Shown: positions 3,566 through 60,737, counted from the first letter of the stretch. The stretch is DNA of 64,000 bases from Nitrospirota bacterium (GCA_016208965.1 JACQXB010000004.1:12914-76913); one strand, 5' to 3'. The notes: generated by a model not told the origin, from the letters alone. Program-made: numbers and translations.

Positions 3566-5227
3566 ATGAAACAAGAAGTTATTGATACTATTTCAAATGC
3601 GATTAAAGGGCTCCGGAAGCAATGGGGATTGAGTGACATACCCCGGATAGATGTAGAAATCCCTAAGAGTGAGGCACACGGTGACATTTTTACTACTCTG
3701 GCAATGAGTATTGCAAAAAGCCTTAAAAAGCCGCCAAGGAAAATAGCAGAAGAGCTTCTCGCTGAGATAAAAAAACAGGAAGGGCCCTTTGAAAAATTTG
3801 AGCTCGCAGGGGCTGGATTTATAAATTTCACATTCAAAAAAGAATATTTTTATCAAGCCCTTGAGAAATTATTAAATGAAGAACACTCCTACCTTAAAAC
3901 AGATATCGGGAAGGACAAAAAGATACAGATTGAATTTGTAAGCGCCAATCCTACAGGACCCCTTCATATTGGGCATGGAAGGGGGGCTGCAGTCGGCAAT
4001 GCCTTAAGTAATATCCTTGCATCAGCAGGGTATGATGTTGAGAGGGAATATTACATAAATGATGCAGGGGTGCAGGTAAAACTCTTGGGACAGTCTGTTT
4101 ATACAAGGTATCAGCAAATGCTTGGGAATAATATTCCTTTTCCTGAAGATGGTTACAAAGGAAGCTATATTGAAACTATTTCAGATGAAATAATCAAAAA
4201 AGCGGGCAATAAGTACTTCAATCAATCCTTTGAAGAGTGTGGAGATTTTTTTACTAACTATTCCTATAAAACAATGCTTGCTGATATCGCAAAAGACCTA
4301 AGAGATTTTGGCATTACCTTTGACAGATGGCAGAGTGAAATGGAGCTTTATGAAAAAGGTAAAGTAACGGATTCTTTAAACACCCTCCACGATAAAAAAT
4401 TTCTCTATGAAAGAGACAGCGCTCTTTGGTTCAGTTCAACCCGATTTGGAGATGATAAAGACAGAGTGGTGGTAAAGAAGGATGGTAAATATACATATTT
4501 TGCCTCTGACATTGCCTATCATAAAGATAAGCTGGATAGGGGGTTTGACACAATTATTGCTCTATGGGGTGCAGACCATCACGGCTATATTCCGAGAATC
4601 AACTCTGTGCTTGAGGCCTTTGATTTTCCAAAGGGAAAATTCAAAGTCATACTTATCCAAATGGTTACACTTCTTAGACACGGGAAACCTGTGCAAATGT
4701 CAAAGAGGGCAGGAGAATTTATAACCCTGCGTGAGGTTATTGATGAGGTTGGAGCTGACACCACAAAATTTATTTTTCTCACAAGACGGCCTGATAGTCA
4801 TCTTGAATTTGACATAGAGGTTGCAAAAGAACAGTCAGCAGAAAATCCTGTTTTCTATGTTCAGTACGCATTTGCAAGGATTTCCAGTATATTCAAGCAG
4901 GCAACGGAGAAGATGCAAGATGCAAGATGCAAGATACAAGAGGTTGACCTTTCAGTTTTAAAAGAACCTGACGAGCTTTCACTAATTAAAAAACTTTTTC
5001 AGTATCCAATGGTATTTGAGGGAACGGTGCTTTCTTTTGAGCCGCATAGGATAACTTATTATTTGCAGGAACTGGCAAAATTATTCCATTCTTATTACAA
5101 CAAGCACAGGGTAATATCTGACGACAAACCACTAACCACTGCGAGACTTTGTCTCTGCAAGGGTGTACAGATTGTCCTTGAAGAAGGATTAAAAATGCTC
5201 GGAGTCAGCGCCCCGGAAAGAATGTGA
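3566..5227 (+). CDS. argS: Arginine--tRNA ligase
   Basis: SANPTGPLHIGHGR (HIGH), MSKR (KMSKS-like), conserved ArgS C-terminal anticodon-binding domain ending in M. Confidence 0.97.
   Translation: MKQEVIDTISNAIKGLRKQWGLSDIPRIDVEIPKSEAHGDIFTTLAMSIAKSLKKPPRKIAEELLAEIKKQEGPFEKFELAGAGFINFTFKKEYFYQALEKLLNEEHSYLKTDIGKDKKIQIEFVSANPTGPLHIGHGRGAAVGNALSNILASAGYDVEREYYINDAGVQVKLLGQSVYTRYQQMLGNNIPFPEDGYKGSYIETISDEIIKKAGNKYFNQSFEECGDFFTNYSYKTMLADIAKDLRDFGITFDRWQSEMELYEKGKVTDSLNTLHDKKFLYERDSALWFSSTRFGDDKDRVVVKKDGKYTYFASDIAYHKDKLDRGFDTIIALWGADHHGYIPRINSVLEAFDFPKGKFKVILIQMVTLLRHGKPVQMSKRAGEFITLREVIDEVGADTTKFIFLTRRPDSHLEFDIEVAKEQSAENPVFYVQYAFARISSIFKQATEKMQDARCKIQEVDLSVLKEPDELSLIKKLFQYPMVFEGTVLSFEPHRITYYLQELAKLFHSYYNKHRVISDDKPLTTARLCLCKGVQIVLEEGLKMLGVSAPERM
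4912..4939. repeat. Heptanucleotide tandem repeat (GATGCAA x3 + GATACAA) inside argS
   Basis: Read directly; translated as MQDARCKIQ in the argS frame. Confidence 0.9.
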
Positions 5228-6283: not shown

Positions 6284-6604
6284 GTCAAGACAAAGGGGGT
6301 CAATTCTTTACTAAAGTCAAGACAAAGGGTCAAACAAAGGGGGCTGGTCAAACAAAGGGGGTCAACAAACAAAGGGGGTCAATCAACAAACAAAGGGGGT
6401 CAACAAACAAAGGGGGTCAATCAACAAACAAAGGGGGTCAATTCTTTACTAATGACAAAGCACATTTTAAATTTTAAAAACTATCAATATGAAAGAATTG
6501 ACCCCCTTTGTTTTTCCCCCCCCTTTGTTTTTCCCAATTGACCCCCATGTTTTTCCCACATGTTTTTCCCATGATTGACCCCCATGTTTTTCCCATGTTT
6601 TTAC
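6284..6604. repeat. Iteron-like array: about 8 direct ACAAAGGGGGTCAA units, an AT-rich spacer, then inverted TTGACCCCC(TTTG/ATG)TTTTTCCC units
   Basis: Units at about 6290, 6322, 6334, 6351, 6369, 6389, 6407 and 6427 with 18-20 bp spacing. AT-rich spacer 6450-6495. Inverted units at about 6497, 6537 and 6566. Confidence 0.85.
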
Positions 6605-7597
6605 CGATACGATGCCATTTACAGACTTAAAACAGCAGCACATCCAACAGGCAATCCTGCTGAGACTTTCAATTACGACTCTGTCGGCAACAGGACATCA
6701 AGCCATTTGTCTTCTTCATATACAACTGACGAGCTAAACAGATTAAAAGAGGATAATAGCTATCTTTATGGCTATGATGCAGACGGCAATATGATATCCA
6801 AAACCTCGACCTCAACCTCAACCTCAACCTTTTACTATTTTGATGCTGAAAATAAACTGATAGGTGTTGACAAATATGCCTCCTTAACCTTGACCTCAAC
6901 CTCGACCTATTCCTATGACGGATTTGGAAGGAGAGTAAAAAAGGATGTTAATGGGGCTGTAAAGTTTTATATTTATGATAATGAGGATATAAGGTTTGAG
7001 ACAGATAGTGTCGGCGCTATTACTGCTGAATACACACACGGCACCGGAATTGATGAGCCGTTGGCTATGAGAAAAGCCGGGCAGAATTATTATTACCATG
7101 TAAATGGTTTAGGCTCTGTAACTGCGTTAACAGATTCCTCTAAAGCTGTTGTACAGTCGTATGTATACGATAGTTTCGAGCAGATAATTTCACAAACAGG
7201 CACAATTACAAACCCTTATACTTTTACAGGTCGTGAATATGACTCTGAAACGGGCATGTATTACTACAGAGCAAGGTATTACAGCCCCGAGCTTCAGAGG
7301 TTCACAAGCGAGGATCCGATTGGGCTGGCGGGAGGAGTAAACCTTTATGTTTATGTCGGAAATAATCCCGTGAATTGGGTTGATCCTTTGGGACTAACAA
7401 CGCCAACAATTCCTGGATATTGGACATATATAAGGTGGGCAGTACCCAGATACTTTTGTAACCTGCTAAAACAAAGGATAGAAAAGGCGAAAGATGACAA
7501 CGAAGTTTGCAAAGAACTGGGAGAGGAACCTCTTTGGGAAATAGATCCCGATGCCTATACTTTTTTAGACTGGTGTTATAAATTAGGATACTTATAA
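6575..7597 (+). CDS. Rhs/YD-repeat core C-terminal fragment with a short polymorphic toxin tip (N-terminally truncated, orphan module)
   Basis: YD repeats (FNYDSVGNRTS, YGYDADGNMI, YSYDGFGRRV). Core end YDSETGMYYYRARYYSPELQRFTSEDPIGLAGGVNLYVYVGNNPVNWVDPLGL, followed by a 66-aa unique tail. The frame opens directly out of the repeat array. Confidence 0.85.
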   Translation: MTPMFFPCFYRYDAIYRLKTAAHPTGNPAETFNYDSVGNRTSSHLSSSYTTDELNRLKEDNSYLYGYDADGNMISKTSTSTSTSTFYYFDAENKLIGVDKYASLTLTSTSTYSYDGFGRRVKKDVNGAVKFYIYDNEDIRFETDSVGAITAEYTHGTGIDEPLAMRKAGQNYYYHVNGLGSVTALTDSSKAVVQSYVYDSFEQIISQTGTITNPYTFTGREYDSETGMYYYRARYYSPELQRFTSEDPIGLAGGVNLYVYVGNNPVNWVDPLGLTTPTIPGYWTYIRWAVPRYFCNLLKQRIEKAKDDNEVCKELGEEPLWEIDPDAYTFLDWCYKLGYL

Positions 7598-31278: not shown

Positions 31279-31313
31279 TGCTCATTGCTCATTGCTTTTG
31301 CCTCATTGCTATT
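31279..31313. repeat. GCTCATT-type heptamer array (i)
   Basis: tgctcat tgctcat tgctttt gcctcat tgctatt, overlapping the stop of the TPR gene. Confidence 0.8.
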
Positions 31314-32187
31314 CCTCTATCCCCTTCCATTCAAAGAATAACTGCACTGCCATTTCCGCATCAGGGTTATCAGGCGCAATGCCTTTTATCACTTTCTTAT
31401 CCTTTGATATCCGCCAAGCTATCTCAAGCGCGGCAAAAAGATAGCTATTATAAAGCCGGGATAAGTTTGTGGGATGCATTGTCTCTGACATAATCTTTTT
31501 CCTGATATTTTCAGGAGAGGTCTGGTAGCTGTCGTCTATTTTTGCAAGTATCCTTGCCTGCTCAAGCGCCTCTCCTTTTCTGCCTGTAAGGAGGTAGTGC
31601 ATTGCAATCGCATACCTCATGGGCGCATTTACAGGAGCTGCGGCAACAGCCTTTGCAAATTCTTTTTCTGCAAGCCGGGCATTACTGATATTTCTGTCAT
31701 AAAGCTTTCCGAGCGCCAGATGATAATCAGGATTCGCAGGCTCAAGATAAACCGCTTTTTTAAGGTATCTCGCTGAGTTTTCAAAAGCCTCTTTGGCTGA
31801 TACGGCTCCGGCAGGAAGGGGTTCAGCAACAGCGTCCATGCTTTCTGCCCATCTTCCGAGCATTGAATATATATCAGACAGTCCCTTATGATAGATAGAC
31901 TTTGACGGAACAAGAGCGGATGCTTTTTTCAGGGATAAGAGGGCGTCATTGTAATCAGATATTGTATCACCTGAGATACCCTTCATATCAAAATATTCTG
32001 TGGATTTATCATCAAGGATATAAGCCACCCTGCTATGATAATAGTCTGCAATAAGCATTCTGACGGGAAACGAGAGCAGAACGGCAATAAACAAAGCAAT
32101 GAGCAATGAGTTAAAAGATAGCAATGAGGTTAAAGGCAGCCTCGTTGCTCGTTGCTCGTTGCTCGTTGCTCGTTGCTCATTGCTCAT
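31309..32187 (-). CDS. TPR-repeat protein with an N-terminal TM anchor
   Basis: TM LLIALFIAVLL; several TPR-like helices (YLEPANPDYHLALGKLY and others). The N-terminus MSNEQRATSNEQRAT is encoded by heptamer repeats. Confidence 0.7.
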   Translation of the reverse strand: MSNEQRATSNEQRATRLPLTSLLSFNSLLIALFIAVLLSFPVRMLIADYYHSRVAYILDDKSTEYFDMKGISGDTISDYNDALLSLKKASALVPSKSIYHKGLSDIYSMLGRWAESMDAVAEPLPAGAVSAKEAFENSARYLKKAVYLEPANPDYHLALGKLYDRNISNARLAEKEFAKAVAAAPVNAPMRYAIAMHYLLTGRKGEALEQARILAKIDDSYQTSPENIRKKIMSETMHPTNLSRLYNSYLFAALEIAWRISKDKKVIKGIAPDNPDAEMAVQLFFEWKGIEE

Positions 32188-32230
32188 TGCTCATTGCTCA
32201 TTGCTCATTGCTCGTTGCTCATTGCTCATT
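32096..32230. repeat. GAGCAAT/GCTCRTT heptamer array (ii): short forward part, then about 13 inverted-orientation units
   Basis: agcaatgagcaatgag at 32096-32111; ctcgttg/ctcattg units at 32141-32230. Confidence 0.9.
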
Positions 32231-32635
32231 TTACGCTTGATCACGTTGTTTCCTAATGGCTATTTTGAGACCACCTATTATCCGGGAGACCTCAATCGCC
32301 AGGTCGCTTATATCCTTAAACTCTTCTGATGTAATATATCCAACATCAAGGGCTGCATAAAGTTGCGAACGGAGTTCAGCGCAAGATGCCTTTGCAATAA
32401 CAATGAATTGATGAAATTCTGCTCTACTACCACGCTCAAAGCCTTCAGCAAGATTTGACATGATTGATACAGCGGCTCTTTGAATTTGTTCGCGCAGTCC
32501 AAAATCCCTTGAGAATGCTCCCTTTCCAGTCATATGGTAAACATGTTTTGTTAATTTTCTGGCCTTTTGCCATGCAACAAGATCCTCAAACTTTTCAACT
32601 TTCATTTTTCTTCCTACTCGTTGCTCATTGCTCAT
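32231..32635 (-). CDS. Four-helix-bundle protein (23S rRNA intervening-sequence protein / Avd-like family)
   Basis: [13 protein letters not shown]...[42 protein letters not shown]. The likely true start is MKVEKF at 32605; the first 10 codons are heptamer-repeat sequence. Confidence 0.85.
32607..32634. repeat. GCTCRTT heptamer array (iii)
   Basis: ctcgttg ctcattg ctcattg cttgccc. Confidence 0.8.
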
Positions 32636-34190
32636 TGCTTGCCCGCCGGTCTCTTGGAGGGCTCATTACTCTTTGCTCTATGTTCAAGGTTGCATATGTT
32701 AACGCTGCTATTACAGTCAGGAGCAAAGCATTTGCCGGAATTCGCATGTTGAAATCCGTAAAACTGTGAACTGCTATTGCTACGCATGAGGCAAGCCCGG
32801 ATGCAGCCATGCACTTCACAAAATTATTATGCCTCTGACGCCATGCCTTTATAATCTTATAGAAAAAAAAGAAGAGCATCGTAATGACAATCATAAACCC
32901 TGCGATGCCTGTATCAGTAAAAATCTCTATATAGTCATTATGCGCATGCTCGTACAAGAATCGCGAGCGTCCAGTTTGATACTGAAGGTATATGTTCTCA
33001 AATGTACCGAGACCTGTCCCGAATACAGGGAAGTCCCTGACCATGTTAATTGTATCTTTCCAGATATCCGTCCGAGCTATTTTGCCTTCTTCTCCTATCT
33101 CTTCAAATCTGTCTTCTATTCTGTCCCAGCCTGCAATTAAAACCACTGATAATATCAGAATTCCTGCCATAGCAATAACGCCTGTTTTTTTTCTTAATGT
33201 TCTTCTGGTGCGGATTAGCAATGTGAAAAAGAGCATAGATGCTGTAAACCCTATTATCCCTCCCCTTGAAAGGCTTATGAACAAGACACCAGTCATTCCC
33301 ATAACAGCAAGAGACAGAAGGGTAATCGGCATAAGACTGCCGCTGACTGAGAGATTGGCAATCCTCTTGCTTAATGATAGATCAGGCAGTTCCTTTATTG
33401 TTGATGTCTTATAAAGGAGAAGCCCAATCGCCAGCGGTATTGCCATCTCCATGTATCCTGCAAAATGAGCGTGGCCTATATAGGGCCCCCAGATGTGACC
33501 CATATTTGAATTCAGACCTTCGCTCACAGGGTAAAACCAGAAAAGCCTGCCGTTCCATGTCATCTTCTGAACCACTGCAAAAACCGCAAGAAAACAACCC
33601 ATGTAAACTATGGCACGGGCAAGGCTGTTTACCTGCGGCTTTGTTTTATAGTGGTTAATTATCACCAGAAAAATTACAGTGTAAGCAGTGAGCTTGAAGA
33701 TATCATCTATTGTTGCAGACTGATAAATGCTTATGGTGCGCCATGTGCCTGCCATATCACCCGCAAATGTCTTATATAGCCTGCTTGTGGAAGGTGATAA
33801 CAGAGAGAGCAGATAGTCAGGCAAGGGGATAATCTGAAAGACTGCAATTAATATAAGGGCAGCAGGAAAAATGAGAATGCTCATTGCTCGTTGCTCATTG
33901 CTCATTGCTCGTTGCTCATTGCTCGTTGTTGCTCTTTGCTCATTGCTCTTTGCTCGTTGTATCAGCCATGCGCCGAATATTATGAATGCCATTATCTCCA
34001 TAACGGCTATTGACCAGTCTTGAACAGTTCCAAAAGCAAGAGGGGTGAATATCAAAAGCAGGACAATGCCCTTCTCTATCACAGCATTAAAAAATCCCCC
34101 CTCACCCCCCTTTAGTAAAGGGGGGATGGGGGGATTTTCTTTAAAGAGATTATTACTCTTCTTTAAAAAATTCATACTCTCTGAAGCCAT
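32625..34190 (-). CDS. O-antigen ligase-like (Wzy_C) membrane protein
   Basis: [20 protein letters not shown] motif and about 11 TM helices. The start is uncertain because a palindromic element lies in the first 35 codons. An internal SNEQRA repeat stretch is present. Confidence 0.75.
33879..33960. repeat. GCTCRTT heptamer array (iv), about 11 units, inside the ligase-like ORF
   Basis: Translated as [24 protein letters not shown] between TM helices. Confidence 0.9.
34089..34138. repeat. Palindromic AAAATCCCCC...GGGGGATTTT element
   Basis: aaaaatcccccctcacccccctttagtaaaggggggatggggggatttt. Confidence 0.9.
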
Positions 34191-37967: not shown

Positions 37968-38079
37968 TAAAATCTCCCCTAACCCCTCTTTGCCAAAGAG
38001 GGGAATATACACCCCTAAATCCCCTCTTAATAGAGGGGAAAAGTCCCCCTTTTACAAAGGGGGATGGAGGGGGATTTTT
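37968..38079. repeat. Cluster of three palindromes of the GGGG/CCCC family between the FecR-like gene and wza
   Basis: cccctctttgccaaagagggg, cccctcttaatagagggg, cccccttttacaaaggggg, with outer aaaatctcccc...gggggatttt. Confidence 0.9.
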
Positions 38080-38149: not shown

Positions 38150-38833
38150 TCAAAAGTTGTGCACATCTTTGATGTAAGCCCTCCTTTGCTGCAACGTAAT
38201 CACAGAAGGTTGTGAAGGCGGGGTCTTCTCTTTTACAATTGTTTTCTGATTTACGCTAAGCCTGATTACCCCCACTGTCAGGAAAGAGATGTTCTTGACG
38301 CTCACTCCGCTGTCAAGCACAGCCACTTCTGTTTCAGCAGGCAAAACCGCAACCACAAAATCAGCGATATTAGCCGTTACCAGAGCCTTATCAGTTTCCA
38401 CCGTAAAACCTGAACCTCTGCTTCTGTATTTATGGATAACAAACCTTGTCTTCCCCTTCAGAACCTTTACAACAGCCTTCCTCCTGTTACTCACAGAATC
38501 ATATACATATTGATTCACCCTTAAACCTGCCTCTGATGACATATTAATAACTGAATCATCTGTAAACACAATCTGCGCCCTTGAATCCTTTCCTGTCTGC
38601 AATATATCGGTCACGGAAATATCGTCTCCTTCTTTTGCGGCAACGGCTTTCTCAAGTCCAGTTCTTTTTATAGTAACGGTTCCGTCTATAAGAATAAGTT
38701 TACCAACTAATGCATCCGCCGCCAAATTGCTCACAGGCAGCAATAGGATAGAGAAAATCACCAGAGAGGGATAAATCCTCTTCCTGAGTCCTAACCAAAA
38801 AAGATAAAACCGGTCAATATACTTACATCGCAA
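38150..38833 (-). CDS. FecR-domain protein
   Basis: GKLILIDGTVTIKR...GDDISVTDILQTGKDSRAQIVFTDDSVINMSSEAGLRV fits the FecR pattern; signal/TM at the N-terminus. Confidence 0.6.
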   Translation of the reverse strand: MRCKYIDRFYLFWLGLRKRIYPSLVIFSILLLPVSNLAADALVGKLILIDGTVTIKRTGLEKAVAAKEGDDISVTDILQTGKDSRAQIVFTDDSVINMSSEAGLRVNQYVYDSVSNRRKAVVKVLKGKTRFVIHKYRSRGSGFTVETDKALVTANIADFVVAVLPAETEVAVLDSGVSVKNISFLTVGVIRLSVNQKTIVKEKTPPSQPSVITLQQRRAYIKDVHNF

Positions 38834-54582: not shown

Positions 54583-54657
54583 TACAAGATTGAAAACAAA
54601 TCACAATCATAATGAATTTTAAAATTAGATATCATGTATCGTGTATCGTGTATCATG
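54567..54657. repeat. Two heptamer arrays (GATGCAG GATGCAT GATACAA GATTGAA; TATCATG TATCGTG TATCGTG TATCATG) at the hisA 3' end and in the hisA-hisF spacer
   Basis: Arrays at 54567-54594 and 54630-57, in opposite orientation to each other. Confidence 0.85.
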
Positions 54658-54665
54658 GAGGTTAA

Positions 54666-55541
54666 ATTTTAGCTAAGCGTATTATCCCATGTCTTGATGT
54701 AAAGGATGGCCGTGTTGTAAAAGGAGTGAGCTTTCTTAATCTCAGGGATGCAGGCGACCCTGTTGAGAATGCAAAATTCTATGATGAACATGGCGCTGAT
54801 GAGCTTGTGTTTCTTGATATTACTGCCTCTCATGAAAAGAGAAAGATTATACTTGATGTAGTGGAAAGAACCGCAACCGATGTATTCATGCCTCTTACTG
54901 TTGGCGGAGGCATAAGGACACTTGATGATATCAGGGACCTTCTTAATTCAGGATGCGATAAGGTCTCAATAAATACCACCGCTGTCCATGATCCGTATTT
55001 TATAAAAAGGGCATCTGAGAGATTTGGTAGCCAGTGTATTGTTGTTGCCATTGATGCGAAGAGGATAAGAGGAGGAATGACCTACGAACCTGAGGAACAG
55101 TGGTTTAGTGATGCCTTTCTGAAAGAGGTAAAGCTTGAATATCCTGATAAAATCCCCCTTATTCCCCCTTTGACAAAGGGGGGCGAGGGGGGATTTTGGG
55201 CAATCTCAACCCATGGCGGAAGAAAAATGAGGCTCATTGACGCGGTGAAATGGGCTAAGAAAATGGAAGAGCTCGACGCAGGTGAAATTCTCCTTACGAG
55301 TATGGATAAGGATGGAACAAAGGATGGCTATGACATTGAGCTCACAAGAACTATCGCTGAAACTGTTTCAATTCCTGTGATTGCATCAGGCGGGGTAGGA
55401 ACGTTGGAGCATTTACGCGAAGGACTTGTTGAAGGCAAGGCAGATGCCGCGCTTGCTGCATCAATCTTTCACTACAGGGAATACACGATAAGAGAGGCAA
55501 AGGAATACCTCAAGGCAAAAGGGGTTGCGGTAAGGTTGTAA
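54666..55541 (+). CDS. hisF: Imidazole glycerol phosphate synthase cyclase subunit
   Basis: (I)[54 protein letters not shown]. The conserved N-terminus begins right after the TAA at 54663-65, so the only in-frame start is ATT at 54666, with GGAGG 4-5 nt upstream. Confidence 0.9.
55149..55197. repeat. Palindromic AAAATCCCCC...GGGGGATTTT element in frame inside hisF
   Basis: aaaatcccccttattccccctttgacaaaggggggcgaggggggatttt, translated as [17 protein letters not shown]. Confidence 0.9.
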
Positions 55542-55589: not shown

Positions 55590-55889
55590 TTATGCTTTTT
55601 TTATTCTCTTTTTCCAATAGTCAGGTTCTCTGTTTAGTTGCATAACTGCGATTATGATGATTCCTTCTTCAATAATTTGATAAATCACACCAAATGGGAA
55701 ACGATTGGTTAAACACCTTCTCGTGTTTTCCGAAAATTTAGACCATGCCGAGGGAAAATGGATCATCCGCTGAATTGTTGAGAAAACTTCCTTGGAGAAT
55801 TCCAAGCCAAGTCCTGATCGACATTCTTCAAAATAATTTATCGCTTTAAGAAACTCTTCCTTTGCTTCGGGATGGAAAGAGTATTTCAT
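55590..55889 (-). CDS. RelE/ParE-family toxin
   Basis: 99 aa; FPFGVIYQIIEEGIIIIAVMQLNREPDYW is typical of the ParE/RelE fold; overlaps the antitoxin gene. Confidence 0.82.
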   Translation of the reverse strand: MKYSFHPEAKEEFLKAINYFEECRSGLGLEFSKEVFSTIQRMIHFPSAWSKFSENTRRCLTNRFPFGVIYQIIEEGIIIIAVMQLNREPDYWKKRIKKA

Positions 55890-56116
55890 ATATAAAATTT
55901 TTCCTGAATTTCCTTAAAAACCTTATTACCGGGTATGGTTTTGACTTTGCCGGTTTTAATTTCATCAACCCTTCTTTCAGCTTCCCTTGCCCATAATGCA
56001 TCTATTTCTTTTTGAGATGGATGCAAGCTATCGAGAATCTTTTCAAGTAATGTAGTTTTTATGTCTACCGGTAAAGACTCGACCATTAAGATTAGCTCGT
56101 TTGTTTTTGTAGTCAT
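55886..56116 (-). CDS. Addiction-module antitoxin (TIGR02574-like)
   Basis: IDALWAREAERRVDEIKTGKVKTIPGNKVFKEI motif. Confidence 0.72.
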   Translation of the reverse strand: MTTKTNELILMVESLPVDIKTTLLEKILDSLHPSQKEIDALWAREAERRVDEIKTGKVKTIPGNKVFKEIQEKFYI

Positions 56117-56224
56117 AAGGTTATTTCTCCTTTTTTATATATTTTAGCATAACGCCCAAAATGGTGACGGCTATCAGCCATCCGCTGACATGTACCGTAC
56201 GGTACATACCGCTGGATTTTTTTG

Positions 56225-56449
56225 TTAGGCACTTTTTAGAATCAGTTTATTATCAAGTTCAAGTTCGTAGGAGAGGATTGTTTTAATATTCATCTTCTTG
56301 GAAGCTTTAAGAATTTCTATTCCTACTATCTTATTTTCAGATGTTGTATCTAAATTCACACCTTCTGAAATCTCAACAACCCCTTCAGGCTTTTGGTTTC
56401 CTAACTTAATATATAGGGCATCAACCTCATTATCATAATGTACTCTCAT
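56225..56449 (-). CDS. DUF2283-domain protein (antitoxin-like partner)
   Basis: MRVHYDNEVDALYIKL...KIVGIEIL. Confidence 0.72.
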   Translation of the reverse strand: MRVHYDNEVDALYIKLGNQKPEGVVEISEGVNLDTTSENKIVGIEILKASKKMNIKTILSYELELDNKLILKSA

Positions 56450-56673
56450 TTCTTCCTCCCTTTCTTCAGTGGATAGTTTGTTATTACTTTTATTAAATTT
56501 TCTTCGATAGAGATAACTATCTTCAATGGATAACTAAATCCTGGAACATCTCTTATAATTTCATGTTCACCTTGATGCAAATTCATGTCCCTTAAAATGT
56601 CTATCACTATTGATTCTGAAATTCCGTAAAGTTTTGCCCGCCTTTTAGCATGACGCGAAAATTTTATCTCCAC
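56446..56673 (-). CDS. DUF4258-domain protein (toxin-like)
   Basis: FSRHAKRRAKLYGISESIVIDIL...KVITNYP; overlaps the DUF2283 gene. Confidence 0.72.
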   Translation of the reverse strand: MEIKFSRHAKRRAKLYGISESIVIDILRDMNLHQGEHEIIRDVPGFSYPLKIVISIEENLIKVITNYPLKKGRKK

Positions 56674-56807
56674 TATGTATCACCCTTTATATATTATATA
56701 ATAATTTTTACCTAAAGGTAGTGATTTGTTACACCCTCTGCCTTTCTCATTTGTAAAAAATGTCAATAGTCAACGGACTGTTGAAAAACTCTAAAATAAC
56801 CGTAAGT

Positions 56808-56996
56808 GTCATTCCCGCATGCTTTTAGCAGGAATCTGTCCCCCCTTAGTAAGGGGGGATTTAAGGGGGGTCTGGATTCCTGCTTTCGCAGGAATCGACA
56901 TGAGCCATTGGCTCACAAAGGAACACGAAAATATCCTCCCCCCTTTGTAAAATCCCCCTCTATTCCCCCTTTACTAAAGGGGGATGAAGGGGGATA
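56808..56996. repeat. Composite intergenic repeat: GTCATTCCCGC-type unit, GGATTCCTGC/GCAGGAATC palindrome, GAGCCATTGGCTC palindrome and an AAAATCCCCC...GGGGGAT element
   Basis: Read directly. ORF 56806..56997 is just its translation (SPLSKGGFKGG...IPPLLKGDEGG). Confidence 0.85.
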
Positions 56997-57050: not shown

Positions 57051-58085
57051 CTACTTAACCGCTACGGTCAGCTCTTTCCTCTCAACCCTGTACATCTCTA
57101 AGATTTCATCCCCGACGCTTCGGGGCTGGGCACTGAGGTAATATCGTTCATCTTTGTTTGATACTGCTACATCTACCTCAGGCAGTTTTTTAGCATCTGA
57201 ATACCTTGCGCATATAGAGGCAGCTAATTCAAGGGCACTTTCTGAAGGATTACCACAGAGTATTGTTAAAGGGCTCCCGAACCCTTCAACCTGTAACAGG
57301 TAATCTGTATTTTCAGATAAAGACCGAATAACATCGTTTTCCTCTTTATTTCTTCCAACTACTATCTTCCAACCATCTGATATTCTGAAATGACGCCCGA
57401 CCCTTAGGAGATTTATATCCTTTAGAGATGGAGCAGGATTATATTTAAGAAGCTCTTTGAGTCTGTAAGAATATACCGGGTCTGTCAGAAGACAGCCTCC
57501 AGAAGGAGCTGGATAATCTGTTAAGCCAAACTCCCTTGCAAGCGCCATTTGAGGCTTTCTTGTCCTGCCACAAAAATTGCAGAGTTTCTCTCTATCTACG
57601 ATTCCCAACTGCTCAGGGATAGTTGGTTTTAGCAGCTTTGTGCTGAGAGGTCTTAATACATAACCTTCAAGTCCTGCCTCTCTGTCTATTCTTGGAAATG
57701 TATCCCTCCTCTGACTCATAGGTCTCTGCCCGAGCACCTCTCCTGTTATTATAAAATCTGCACTGAATATTTCCATAAGCTCTTTAGCCTCTTTTAACAT
57801 CAGTATCCTGCAGTCAATACATGGGTTCATGTTTTTACCATATCCGAACTTTGGATTCTTCACAATCTCTATGAACTTATCAGCGAGGTGGCAGAGTTTT
57901 ACTTTAAACCCGAATTTCTCAGCAGCAGAAAACGGGTCTTTGGAGCATGAAGACCTGTCTGAGATATCACACCCAAAATGTGTAAGAAAAGTGACGGCAA
58001 TAACCTCTATCCCCTGTCTCATGGCAGTAAGGATAGCGAGTGTGCTGTCAAGGCCCCCTGAGAAAAGCGCAATCGCCTTTGGCAT
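57051..58085 (-). CDS. ThiI-like PP-loop ATP pyrophosphatase (tRNA sulfurtransferase family, no THUMP domain)
   Basis: LFSGGLDSTLA PP-loop, NPCIDCRILML, ITGEVLGQRPMSQ. Confidence 0.7.
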   Translation of the reverse strand: MPKAIALFSGGLDSTLAILTAMRQGIEVIAVTFLTHFGCDISDRSSCSKDPFSAAEKFGFKVKLCHLADKFIEIVKNPKFGYGKNMNPCIDCRILMLKEAKELMEIFSADFIITGEVLGQRPMSQRRDTFPRIDREAGLEGYVLRPLSTKLLKPTIPEQLGIVDREKLCNFCGRTRKPQMALAREFGLTDYPAPSGGCLLTDPVYSYRLKELLKYNPAPSLKDINLLRVGRHFRISDGWKIVVGRNKEENDVIRSLSENTDYLLQVEGFGSPLTILCGNPSESALELAASICARYSDAKKLPEVDVAVSNKDERYYLSAQPRSVGDEILEMYRVERKELTVAVK

Positions 58086-60651: not shown

Positions 60652-60664
60652 TTAAAAATAGCAC

Positions 60665-60737
60665 GATTCATGATACACGATACATGATTCATGATTCATG
60701 ATGAAAATTTTCCTATCCTGTATCTTGTATCATGCAT
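60665..60737. repeat. Two opposed heptamer arrays (GATWCAY x6, then TATCNTG x3) between secF and recJ
   Basis: Arrays at 60665-60706 and 60714-60734. Confidence 0.85.

Follow-up and report, generated by a model that had tools for sequence, protein, structure and literature searches.

A small palindromic repeat read in frame within hisF of a Nitrospirota bacterium and its probable place in a dispersed family of selfish hairpins

An earlier note on a stretch of 64,000 nucleotides from a Nitrospirota bacterium (GCA_016208965.1, JACQXB010000004.1:12914-76913; the whole stretch is referred to here as the window) had drawn attention to a palindromic segment lying within hisF, the gene for the cyclase subunit of imidazole glycerol phosphate synthase, and this segment was followed up here by computational analysis. 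The 49-bp segment is probably a copy of a small, dispersed, selfish hairpin repeat that is tolerated by the gene. The note had compared it with the Rickettsia palindromic elements (RPEs), and this comparison was supported, as copies of the same element are present in frame in many unrelated genes and relatives of the window's hisF share its copy.

The dispersal of a palindrome of about 49 bp, as described in the note, was confirmed in the window. The pattern CCCCCTT-N(2-12)-AAGGGGG occurs five times (match positions 34106, 38045, 55164, 56841, and 56965), whereas 100 shuffles that preserve dinucleotides contain it 0.00 times on average. Two more hairpins, variants at 37983 and 38021, were picked up by a relaxed census, for a total of seven cores in the 64 kb, the GC content of which is 40.3%. 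The full two-stem element can be written as AAAATCCCCC..CCCCCTTT-NNN-AAAGGGGG..GGGGGATTTT and is found at 34091-34138, 55149-55197, and 56949-56995, with partial copies at 38040-38079 and 56840-56870. In hisF, the parts follow one another as AAAATCCCCC-TTATT-CCCCCTTT-GAC-AAAGGGGGG-CGA-GGGGGGATTTT, for which the predicted fold has a free energy of -33.2 kcal/mol (z = -3.9), with none of 200 shuffles being as stable. The features concerned are the following:

32625-34175, minus strand: O-antigen-ligase-family gene (516 aa at NCBI, P0121, with the element included)
34091-34138, no strand assigned: full copy of the element, in frame on the minus strand in the N-terminal tail of the O-antigen-ligase-family gene
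37969-38079, no strand assigned: cluster of three related hairpins (variant at 37969-38005, mini hairpin at 38017-38037, partial copy at 38040-38079)
54666-55541, plus strand: hisF, imidazole glycerol phosphate synthase cyclase subunit, an uninterrupted frame of 291 aa
55065-55148, plus strand: class-wide extension of the beta5-alpha5 loop of HisF (residues 134-161 approximately), not derived from the element
55149-55197, no strand assigned: palindromic two-stem element of hisF, translated in frame as K162-F177 of HisF
56840-56870, no strand assigned: partial copy (inner hairpin and right outer arm), intergenic, with a weak fold (z = -0.5)
56949-56995, no strand assigned: full copy of the element, intergenic, downstream of a convergent gene (57051-58085)

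The peptide encoded by the hisF copy had been said to recur in frames running through the copies at 34089 and 56949. This stood for the first of these, which is read on the minus strand in the O-antigen-ligase-family gene; among orthologues of this protein, the copy is decayed in P0122 (77% identical) and absent from P0123 and P0124. It did not stand for the second, as the copy at 56949-56995 (-29.4 kcal/mol, z = -3.2) is crossed only by one spurious-looking open reading frame (ORF) of 63 codons. The cluster at 37969-38079 lies between a gene ending at 38150 and the probable start of a polysaccharide-export gene, and its hairpins are most likely untranslated, judging by the signal-peptide-like MVFIFLFSLIPFTLNA found downstream of them. 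Another inverted repeat (GCAGGAATC / GGATTCCTGC) flanks the partial copy at 56840-56870 on both sides. At 56806-56900, this partial C/G hairpin is surrounded by a second family of hairpins (GTCATTCCCGCATGC..GCAGGAATC / GGATTCCTGCTTTCGCAGGAATCGAC), the spurious ORFs of which give peptide-like strings such as SFPHAFSRNL and IPAFAGI. A search of the whole window against Rfam gave no matches at the gathering score, with only generic hairpin hits far below threshold near the element, and a terminator scan listed the 34091 copy alone, on the minus strand, and not the hisF copy.

The gene that carries the 55149 copy is an intact hisF of 291 codons, and the statement that this copy brings neither a stop codon nor a frameshift proved correct. 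The likely start is the ATT at 54666, four bases after GGAGG (54657-54661); a stop codon and this Shine-Dalgarno sequence precede the N-terminus, and the frame extends upstream of the first GTG given by the ORF finder, with the canonical N-terminus beginning at the ATT. Two orthologues (L081 and L082) have ATG at this position. The protein is identical over 291 aa to one from a metagenome-assembled genome (MAG) at NCBI (P0001, ‘Nitrospirae bacterium’). It was identified as HisF, a (beta/alpha)8 barrel of the His_biosynth family (Pfam PF00977), with phmmer matches in the PDB to HisF-LUCA (E = 7.5e-102) and to Thermotoga maritima HisF (E of about 1e-80), and the catalytic residues D11 and D130 (T. 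maritima numbering) are invariant in the HisF alignment. Its AlphaFold2 (AF2) model is a complete barrel with a mean predicted local distance difference test score (pLDDT) of 82 and a predicted template modelling score (pTM) of 0.85, and Foldseek aligned this barrel to HisF structures with a target-normalised TM score of about 0.9. These data show that the HisF barrel and its catalytic Asp residues are intact despite the insert.

When aligned with solved HisF structures, residues 1-137 correspond to 1-137 and residues 175-291 to 135-251, leaving about 38 extra residues situated just past the catalytic Asp130. In terms of the HisF fold, as reportedly described by Lang and colleagues in 2000, we take the point of insertion to be the beta5'-beta5'' hairpin, which is part of the beta5-alpha5 loop and faces the catalytic side of the barrel, with the copy of the element at the tip of this hairpin. 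Close homologues of the protein (79-90% identity, from Nitrospirota/Thermodesulfovibrionales MAGs) are 280-318 aa in length compared to approximately 252 aa for canonical HisF. The number of residues between AIDAKR and THGGRK, given as 45 in the note, is 48.

The palindrome accounts for only part of the long loop of this HisF. The element supplies 16-17 (K162-F177) of the approximately 38 extra residues, while about 27 others form an extension with the consensus RVRxxMxYEPEEPWFxDxxLKxVxL, in which E144, W146, and L152 are invariant. This extension was found in all 78 of the Thermodesulfovibrionia hisF loci with a readable loop (80 sampled) and is not found in solved HisF structures; it is an older protein feature, common to the whole sampled class, and the element sits on top of it. 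An origin of the extension as an ancient copy of the element was considered and rejected, as its DNA has no hairpin signal (z = +0.25), and it is for this reason that the element explains only 16-17 residues. The variable part of the insert lies between the conserved block of about 27 residues and the invariant W178-AISTHGGR. In the AF2 model, the extension forms two short helices with pLDDT values of 80-86, and the segment coded by the element (residues 158-177) is a coil with a pLDDT of about 62; the structural check suggested in the note, therefore, places the element in a coil on an intact barrel.

A scan of species-representative genomes yielded 80 hisF loci, nearly all labelled Nitrospirota/Thermodesulfovibrionia, and in 78 of these it was possible to measure the distance between the IDAK and STHGG motifs. 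The values lie between 111 and 276 nt, with 120-123 nt as the basal state and 111-123 nt for the minimal loop. Where the element is lacking, the loop is 111-126 nt long compared to 156 nt in the hisF of the window, and the alignment of orthologues proposed in the note thus finds the shorter loop in those that are free of the element. Exactly this spot holds C/G hairpin units, between one and three of them, in approximately 25 of the 80 species, and in many others it is empty. These units are intact in L006, L008, and L037 and decayed in L002, L017, L022, and L026. Nested arrangements also occur: in L043, two complete two-stem units are located inside the apical loop of an outer unit (predicted fold -103.5 kcal/mol), L066 and L046 have parts of this structure together with one further small hairpin, and L027, L051, L031, and L078 have two inner hairpins within one pair of outer arms. 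At least three types of outer stem were identified at the spot (AAAATCCCCC/GGGGGATT, CACCCCCCC/GGGGGGGTTA, and that of L023). In five further loci (L001, L003, L004, L005, and L007), it is instead occupied by about three copies of a heptamer, which add 21-24 nt with the frame kept; two unrelated repeat families use one permissive HisF site.

Across the 80 loci, hairpin cores are approximately 300 times denser in the loop (18 in ~4 kb) than in the flanks (7 in ~480 kb). In a weakly resolved neighbour-joining tree of HisF, built from 255 residues with the loop left out, filled and empty loci are interleaved (for example, L006 filled and L034 empty; L021 and L031 filled, L065 and L067 empty), and several gains and/or losses of the loop element are required. 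The spot has been filled, emptied, and refilled across the class and is not the site of a one-off insertion.

It could be argued that the Pro/Gly segment is simply a native HisF loop under protein-level selection whose likeness to the repeat is secondary, given that the extension of about 27 residues around it is truly a conserved feature of the class and that its peptide is kept in the nearest relatives. This is very improbable. The same two-stem DNA of 45-49 nt also occurs between genes in the window and in unrelated genes and phyla, orthologues at 80-85% identity are empty or hold heptamer repeats, the segment itself is modelled as a low-confidence coil, and a near-perfect DNA palindrome is not what would be expected from selection on a loop peptide.

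Since G/C homopolymers and repeats are prone to error in short-read assemblies, and since this hisF has an unusual ATT start codon, an assembly artefact or a pseudogene was also considered. Both are extremely unlikely. The same copy was found at the same place and in frame in L081 (P0002, 90% identity) and L082 (P0003, 88% identity), which come from independent JGI metagenomes, and the same loop is encoded in five further assemblies (P0002-P0006, from JGI, ENA, and Logan), two of these having been read at the DNA level. Moreover, the ORF is of full length, the invariant residues of the family are present and the model is a complete barrel. The hisF copy is not an assembly artefact, given that it recurs in metagenomes assembled independently of one another. 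In L082 (10385-10561), there is in addition an imperfect mini-hairpin of 21 nt, TCGGATCGACTCGATTCCGAG, inside the hisF element, where it is read as SDRLDSE; this is nesting on a small scale.

To follow the family beyond hisF, metagenome contigs were scanned with a strict two-stem pattern. This gave at least 120 contigs, with 123 copies analysed, and the GC content of the element-bearing contigs among the matches listed ranges from 0.37 to 0.71. The element measures 41-47 bp between the ends [A/T]AATCCCCC ... GGGGGATT[T/A] and consists of two C5-7/G5-7 stems, a variable internal bulge and an apical loop of 3 nt. Its ends are sharp, with conservation in 120 copies stopping one base outside AATC...GATT, and the terminal inverted repeats AATCCCCC / GGGGGATT are conserved, as in MITEs (transposable elements of miniature size with inverted repeats). 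In the same 120 copies, flanking direct repeats of 2-5 nt occur at or below the level of chance, indicating no target-site duplication, and there is no target motif; there is also no U-tract, only position +1 (a single T after GATT) being T-biased. Perfectly complementary spacers in the internal bulge numbered 14 of 126 against 5.9 in shuffles (maximum 15), and no covariation is claimed from this.

Copies were counted as ORF-embedded when at least 40 open codons were present on each side. Among the matches listed, this was so for 35 of 123 copies (28%) compared to 68% of random 45-nt windows from the same contigs. The element is depleted from coding sequence, which points to selection against insertions there, yet it is far from excluded, with most copies being intergenic. 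Pfam domains were identified in 18 of the 20 longest element-bearing ORFs, and in most of these 18 the domains flank or span the element, the DNA methylase and the first GAF protein being exceptions. Most of the embedded copies that were checked are thus in real genes. The host genes have functions in nucleic acid metabolism (a UvrD/AddA-type helicase-nuclease, RecG, the RNA 3'-phosphate cyclase RtcA, TatD, and a DNA methylase), in translation and the cell wall (MnmE, CysRS, and a MurD-like ligase), in metabolism (a MetH-like pterin/B12 methyltransferase, a molybdopterin oxidoreductase, a GH57 branching enzyme, the SAICAR synthetase PurC, another HisF, the chorismate synthase AroC, and a YegS-type kinase) and in signalling (three proteins with GAF domains, of which one also has an HD domain and another a GGDEF domain). 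Comparison with solved structures of homologues shows the peptide of the element to be inserted in AroC and TatD.

Within Thermodesulfovibrionia, in-frame copies were also found in YbeY of L031 and in a 282-aa ORF of L023. On the high-GC contig L137, the element adjoins LarC, the best named relatives of which are from Methylomirabilales/NC10 (81-85% identity). These findings show the family to be present in Thermodesulfovibrionia and in at least one other phylum (Methylomirabilota, one contig). The element is also carried by 14 stretches of viral contigs in IMG/VR. A blastn search of PLSDB plasmids with the 48-nt copy gave no match, although the low-complexity filter may have masked the query.

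The earlier note had proposed a preferred, coding-compatible frame for the element. The pattern itself stands, as PP[LF]xKGG frames are used by 32 of the 35 ORF-embedded copies, but such a preference is largely forced by the C5TTT/AAAG5 palindrome and selection for a particular peptide is not needed to explain it. The palindrome pairs the codons CCC with GGG (Pro/Gly), AAA with TTT (Lys/Phe), and AAT with ATT (Asn/Ile). Two of the three frames on either strand, and thus four of six, read N/K-P-P-x-P-P-[LF]-x-K-G-G-x-G-G-[FIL] without stops, and the third (PLxxRG) is often closed by a TAG or TAA in the AT-rich apical loop; the frame preference follows from this. Codon usage was tried as evidence of a DNA-level origin and was set aside, as neither CCC, which encodes 18% of the prolines, nor GGG, which encodes 23% of the glycines, is rare enough to be informative.

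Between the window, L081, and L082, only 2 of the 48 nt of the element are changed, both in the unpaired bulge, whereas the rest of hisF differs by about 18%. Synonymous changes affect 1-2 of 15-16 codons in the element compared to approximately 40% elsewhere in the gene (Fisher p = 0.006-0.03). Older hisF copies in other species are clearly decayed. This conservation is an argument for supposing that the hisF hairpin has been domesticated as a pause, attenuation or mRNA-stability signal acting at the RNA or DNA level. The hairpin is also very stable (-33 kcal/mol) and, together with the Pro-Pro codons, it would be placed midway along hisF, the last gene of a hisA-hisF pair. We nevertheless regard it as unlikely, since many species of the same class do without the element and the stems are decayed in the four loci listed above (L002, L017, L022, and L026), the three comparisons represent one phylogeny and 48 nt only, and a recent origin or gene conversion with other copies would explain the conservation equally well. 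Furthermore, the hisF copy is not terminator-like, and the family lacks a U-tract.

A tolerated selfish repeat remains the preferred explanation, but there are a number of observations that weigh against it. The conservation of the stems is suggestive of a constraint at the DNA or RNA level, or of gene conversion, and in this one small phylogeny it hints at a departure from pure neutrality. No clean junction emerges from pairs of filled and empty hisF sites; the two differ in length by only 33-36 nt, the filled being the longer, and GGATTA, which resembles an end of the element, is already present in the empty ones. Copies embedded in ORFs do not have lengths divisible by three more often than expected, and a simple course of insertion and survival would therefore need later repair of the frame or loss of target bases. 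Mobility is itself read from the distribution of the copies, no transposition event having been observed, and no mobilising gene or transposase was identified in the 64 kb and the short flanks of the other loci, although no search was made for PF01797 or a parent insertion sequence (IS).

If the element does spread as selfish DNA, copies that enter genes may survive only where a coil rich in Pro and Gly is harmless. Its C5/G5 stems would encode Pro/Gly turns, and stop-free reading in four of six frames would favour survival, with the frame being restorable through slippage in the C and G runs. New copies would tend to enter the apical loop of a resident copy, which would turn the HisF loop into a growing landing pad; this preference is suggested by the finding that 4 of 118 copies lie inside another hairpin and none in the opposite arrangement, and by the same pattern in the nested hisF inserts. 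As to mobilisation, transfer of a single-stranded hairpin by an enzyme like those of the HUH class or the REP-associated tyrosine transposases (RAYT), or template switching, can be offered as a guess that would fit both the hairpin shape and the absence of target-site duplications.

A wider reading, put forward tentatively and less likely than not, is that one element of about 45 bp has spread across bacterial phyla of anoxic sediments and groundwater, where it would act as a general source of loop inserts in core enzymes owing to its readability in four of six frames, nest preferentially in apical loops, so that inserts grow at fixed landing pads such as the beta5-alpha5 loop of HisF, and be constrained as nucleic acid in some of its in-gene copies. 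Were this so, copies within genes might have a secondary role, for example in translational or transcriptional pausing through the hairpin of -33 kcal/mol and the Pro-Pro codons, and the mobilising machinery would be new or not yet linked to elements of so small a size.

A number of other repeats are found in the window. Tandem heptanucleotide arrays (period 7) are numerous, differ in sequence from site to site and in several cases are located in coding sequence (4910-4941, 9748, 10825, 12093, 31274, 32141-32230, 33878-33960, 45812, 54630, 59967, and 60665); similar short heptamers, repeated in tandem, are known from cyanobacteria. One array, at 4910, falls within an arginyl-tRNA synthetase ORF and is read as QDARCKIQ. 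Arrays of AATGAGC/AACGAGC at 32132-32250 and 33864-33973 encode in-frame SNEQRA(M/T) repeats in the minus-strand ORFs 31309-32187 and 32625-34190. In the O-antigen-ligase-family protein, these repeats occupy a loop and the C-terminus, whereas in the next ORF they are N-terminal. In the same loop, orthologues of this ligase have different heptamer-coded peptides of very different lengths, or none.

Arrays of GTATCGT/ATCATGT form an inverted pair at 54631-54657, just upstream of hisF, and 60662-60695, with 93% complementarity over 27 nt. Between hisF and the repeat-rich spacer, the minus strand (55590-56673) has four small back-to-back ORFs (99, 76, 74, and 75 aa), which from their layout alone look like two toxin-antitoxin pairs. 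Dense direct repeats of 17-21 nt (CAAACAAAGGGGGTCAA) at 6316-6602 are followed by inverted copies (TTGACCCCCTTTGTTT) and by repeats of 11-13 nt (CCCATGTTTTT); this array is upstream of an ORF (6575-7597) that, from its sequence, may be the end of an RHS/YD-repeat protein.

The survival of selfish palindromes in frame within housekeeping genes has so far been treated as a peculiarity of Rickettsia and is now seen in free-living Nitrospirota and at least one further phylum, with an element one third the size of an RPE and a large sample of host genes. Over about 80 species, the HisF loop is found empty, with a single, decayed or nested insert, or with heptamers in its place. This natural series, in one of the most thoroughly studied (beta/alpha)8 enzymes, makes it possible to test how far a loop on the catalytic face tolerates foreign sequence and whether inserts serve as seeds of new protein features. 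There are practical consequences as well: intergenic copies will lead annotation pipelines to predict numerous spurious small ORFs, non-homologous inserts will be present in core-gene alignments for these lineages, and the C/G homopolymer runs are likely hot spots of sequencing and assembly error.

No description of the present repeat family was found in the literature, in a search of incomplete coverage, and it may have been described elsewhere. Similarities to several known systems can be drawn. The small dispersed repeats (SDRs) of cyanobacteria, reportedly described by Elhai and colleagues in 2008 as sequences of 21-27 nt in Nostocales, are likewise very small (well under 100 nt), nested, mobile-like hairpin repeats with no known enzyme. 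Their sequences are not known to be related to the present one, and they are not defined by persisting frequently in frame within housekeeping genes.

Repetitive extragenic palindromic sequences (REPs), with their hairpin-forming doublets (REPINs) and the associated RAYTs, are short, GC-rich, imperfect palindromes of high copy number that are seldom found in coding regions (PMC3116915; PMC12306157). The present element resembles them in these sequence features and in copy number, in being mostly extragenic, in lacking target-site duplications and in that copies can be targets for further insertions. It differs in that 28% of the copies listed (35 of 123) lie in long ORFs and are not confined almost exclusively to extragenic DNA, in that those of its sequences that were read do not start with the conserved GTAG-type head and in that its unit is one hairpin with two stems and not two REPs in inverted orientation. 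MITEs and terminator-like repeats (Correia, ERIC, BOX, RUP, and SPRITE) share with it the terminal inverted repeats, the hairpin and the A/T ends, and occasional in-frame fusions of MITEs with host ORFs have been reported (PMC10969869). However, the present element is shorter than nearly all MITEs and has neither a target-site duplication nor a known parent IS, and unlike terminators and SPRITE its ends are only ATT(T), short of a U-tract of at least five T.

The closest parallel is with the RPEs (Ogata et al., 2000, 2002, as summarised in PMC10969869), which are repeats of ~100-150 bp that are not known outside Rickettsia and relatives; for elements of about 150 bp, 44 integrations in unrelated genes of Rickettsia conorii have been counted, nearly half of them in frame (PMC10969869). 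In both cases, dispersed palindromes are found with a large share in frame within unrelated housekeeping genes that remain unbroken, and the extra peptide is placed at points where the fold of the protein can accommodate it. To our knowledge, no mobilising enzyme is known for either. Judged by length and composition only, the present element does not fall within RPE-1 to RPE-10, being 41-49 bp in length and having Nitrospirota hosts. It is found at least in Nitrospirota (Thermodesulfovibrionia) and Methylomirabilota, on contigs with a GC range of 37-71%, its consensus consists of C5/G5 stems that are read as a Pro/Gly coil, and its copies nest in apical loops. In functional kind it is RPE-like, as it forms a dispersed family of palindromes and its copies are in frame in conserved genes and absent from orthologues. 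The family joins the palindromic selfish repeats that persist in frame, among which it is unusual in being tiny, cross-phylum, and self-nesting, with a recurrent hot spot in a model enzyme.

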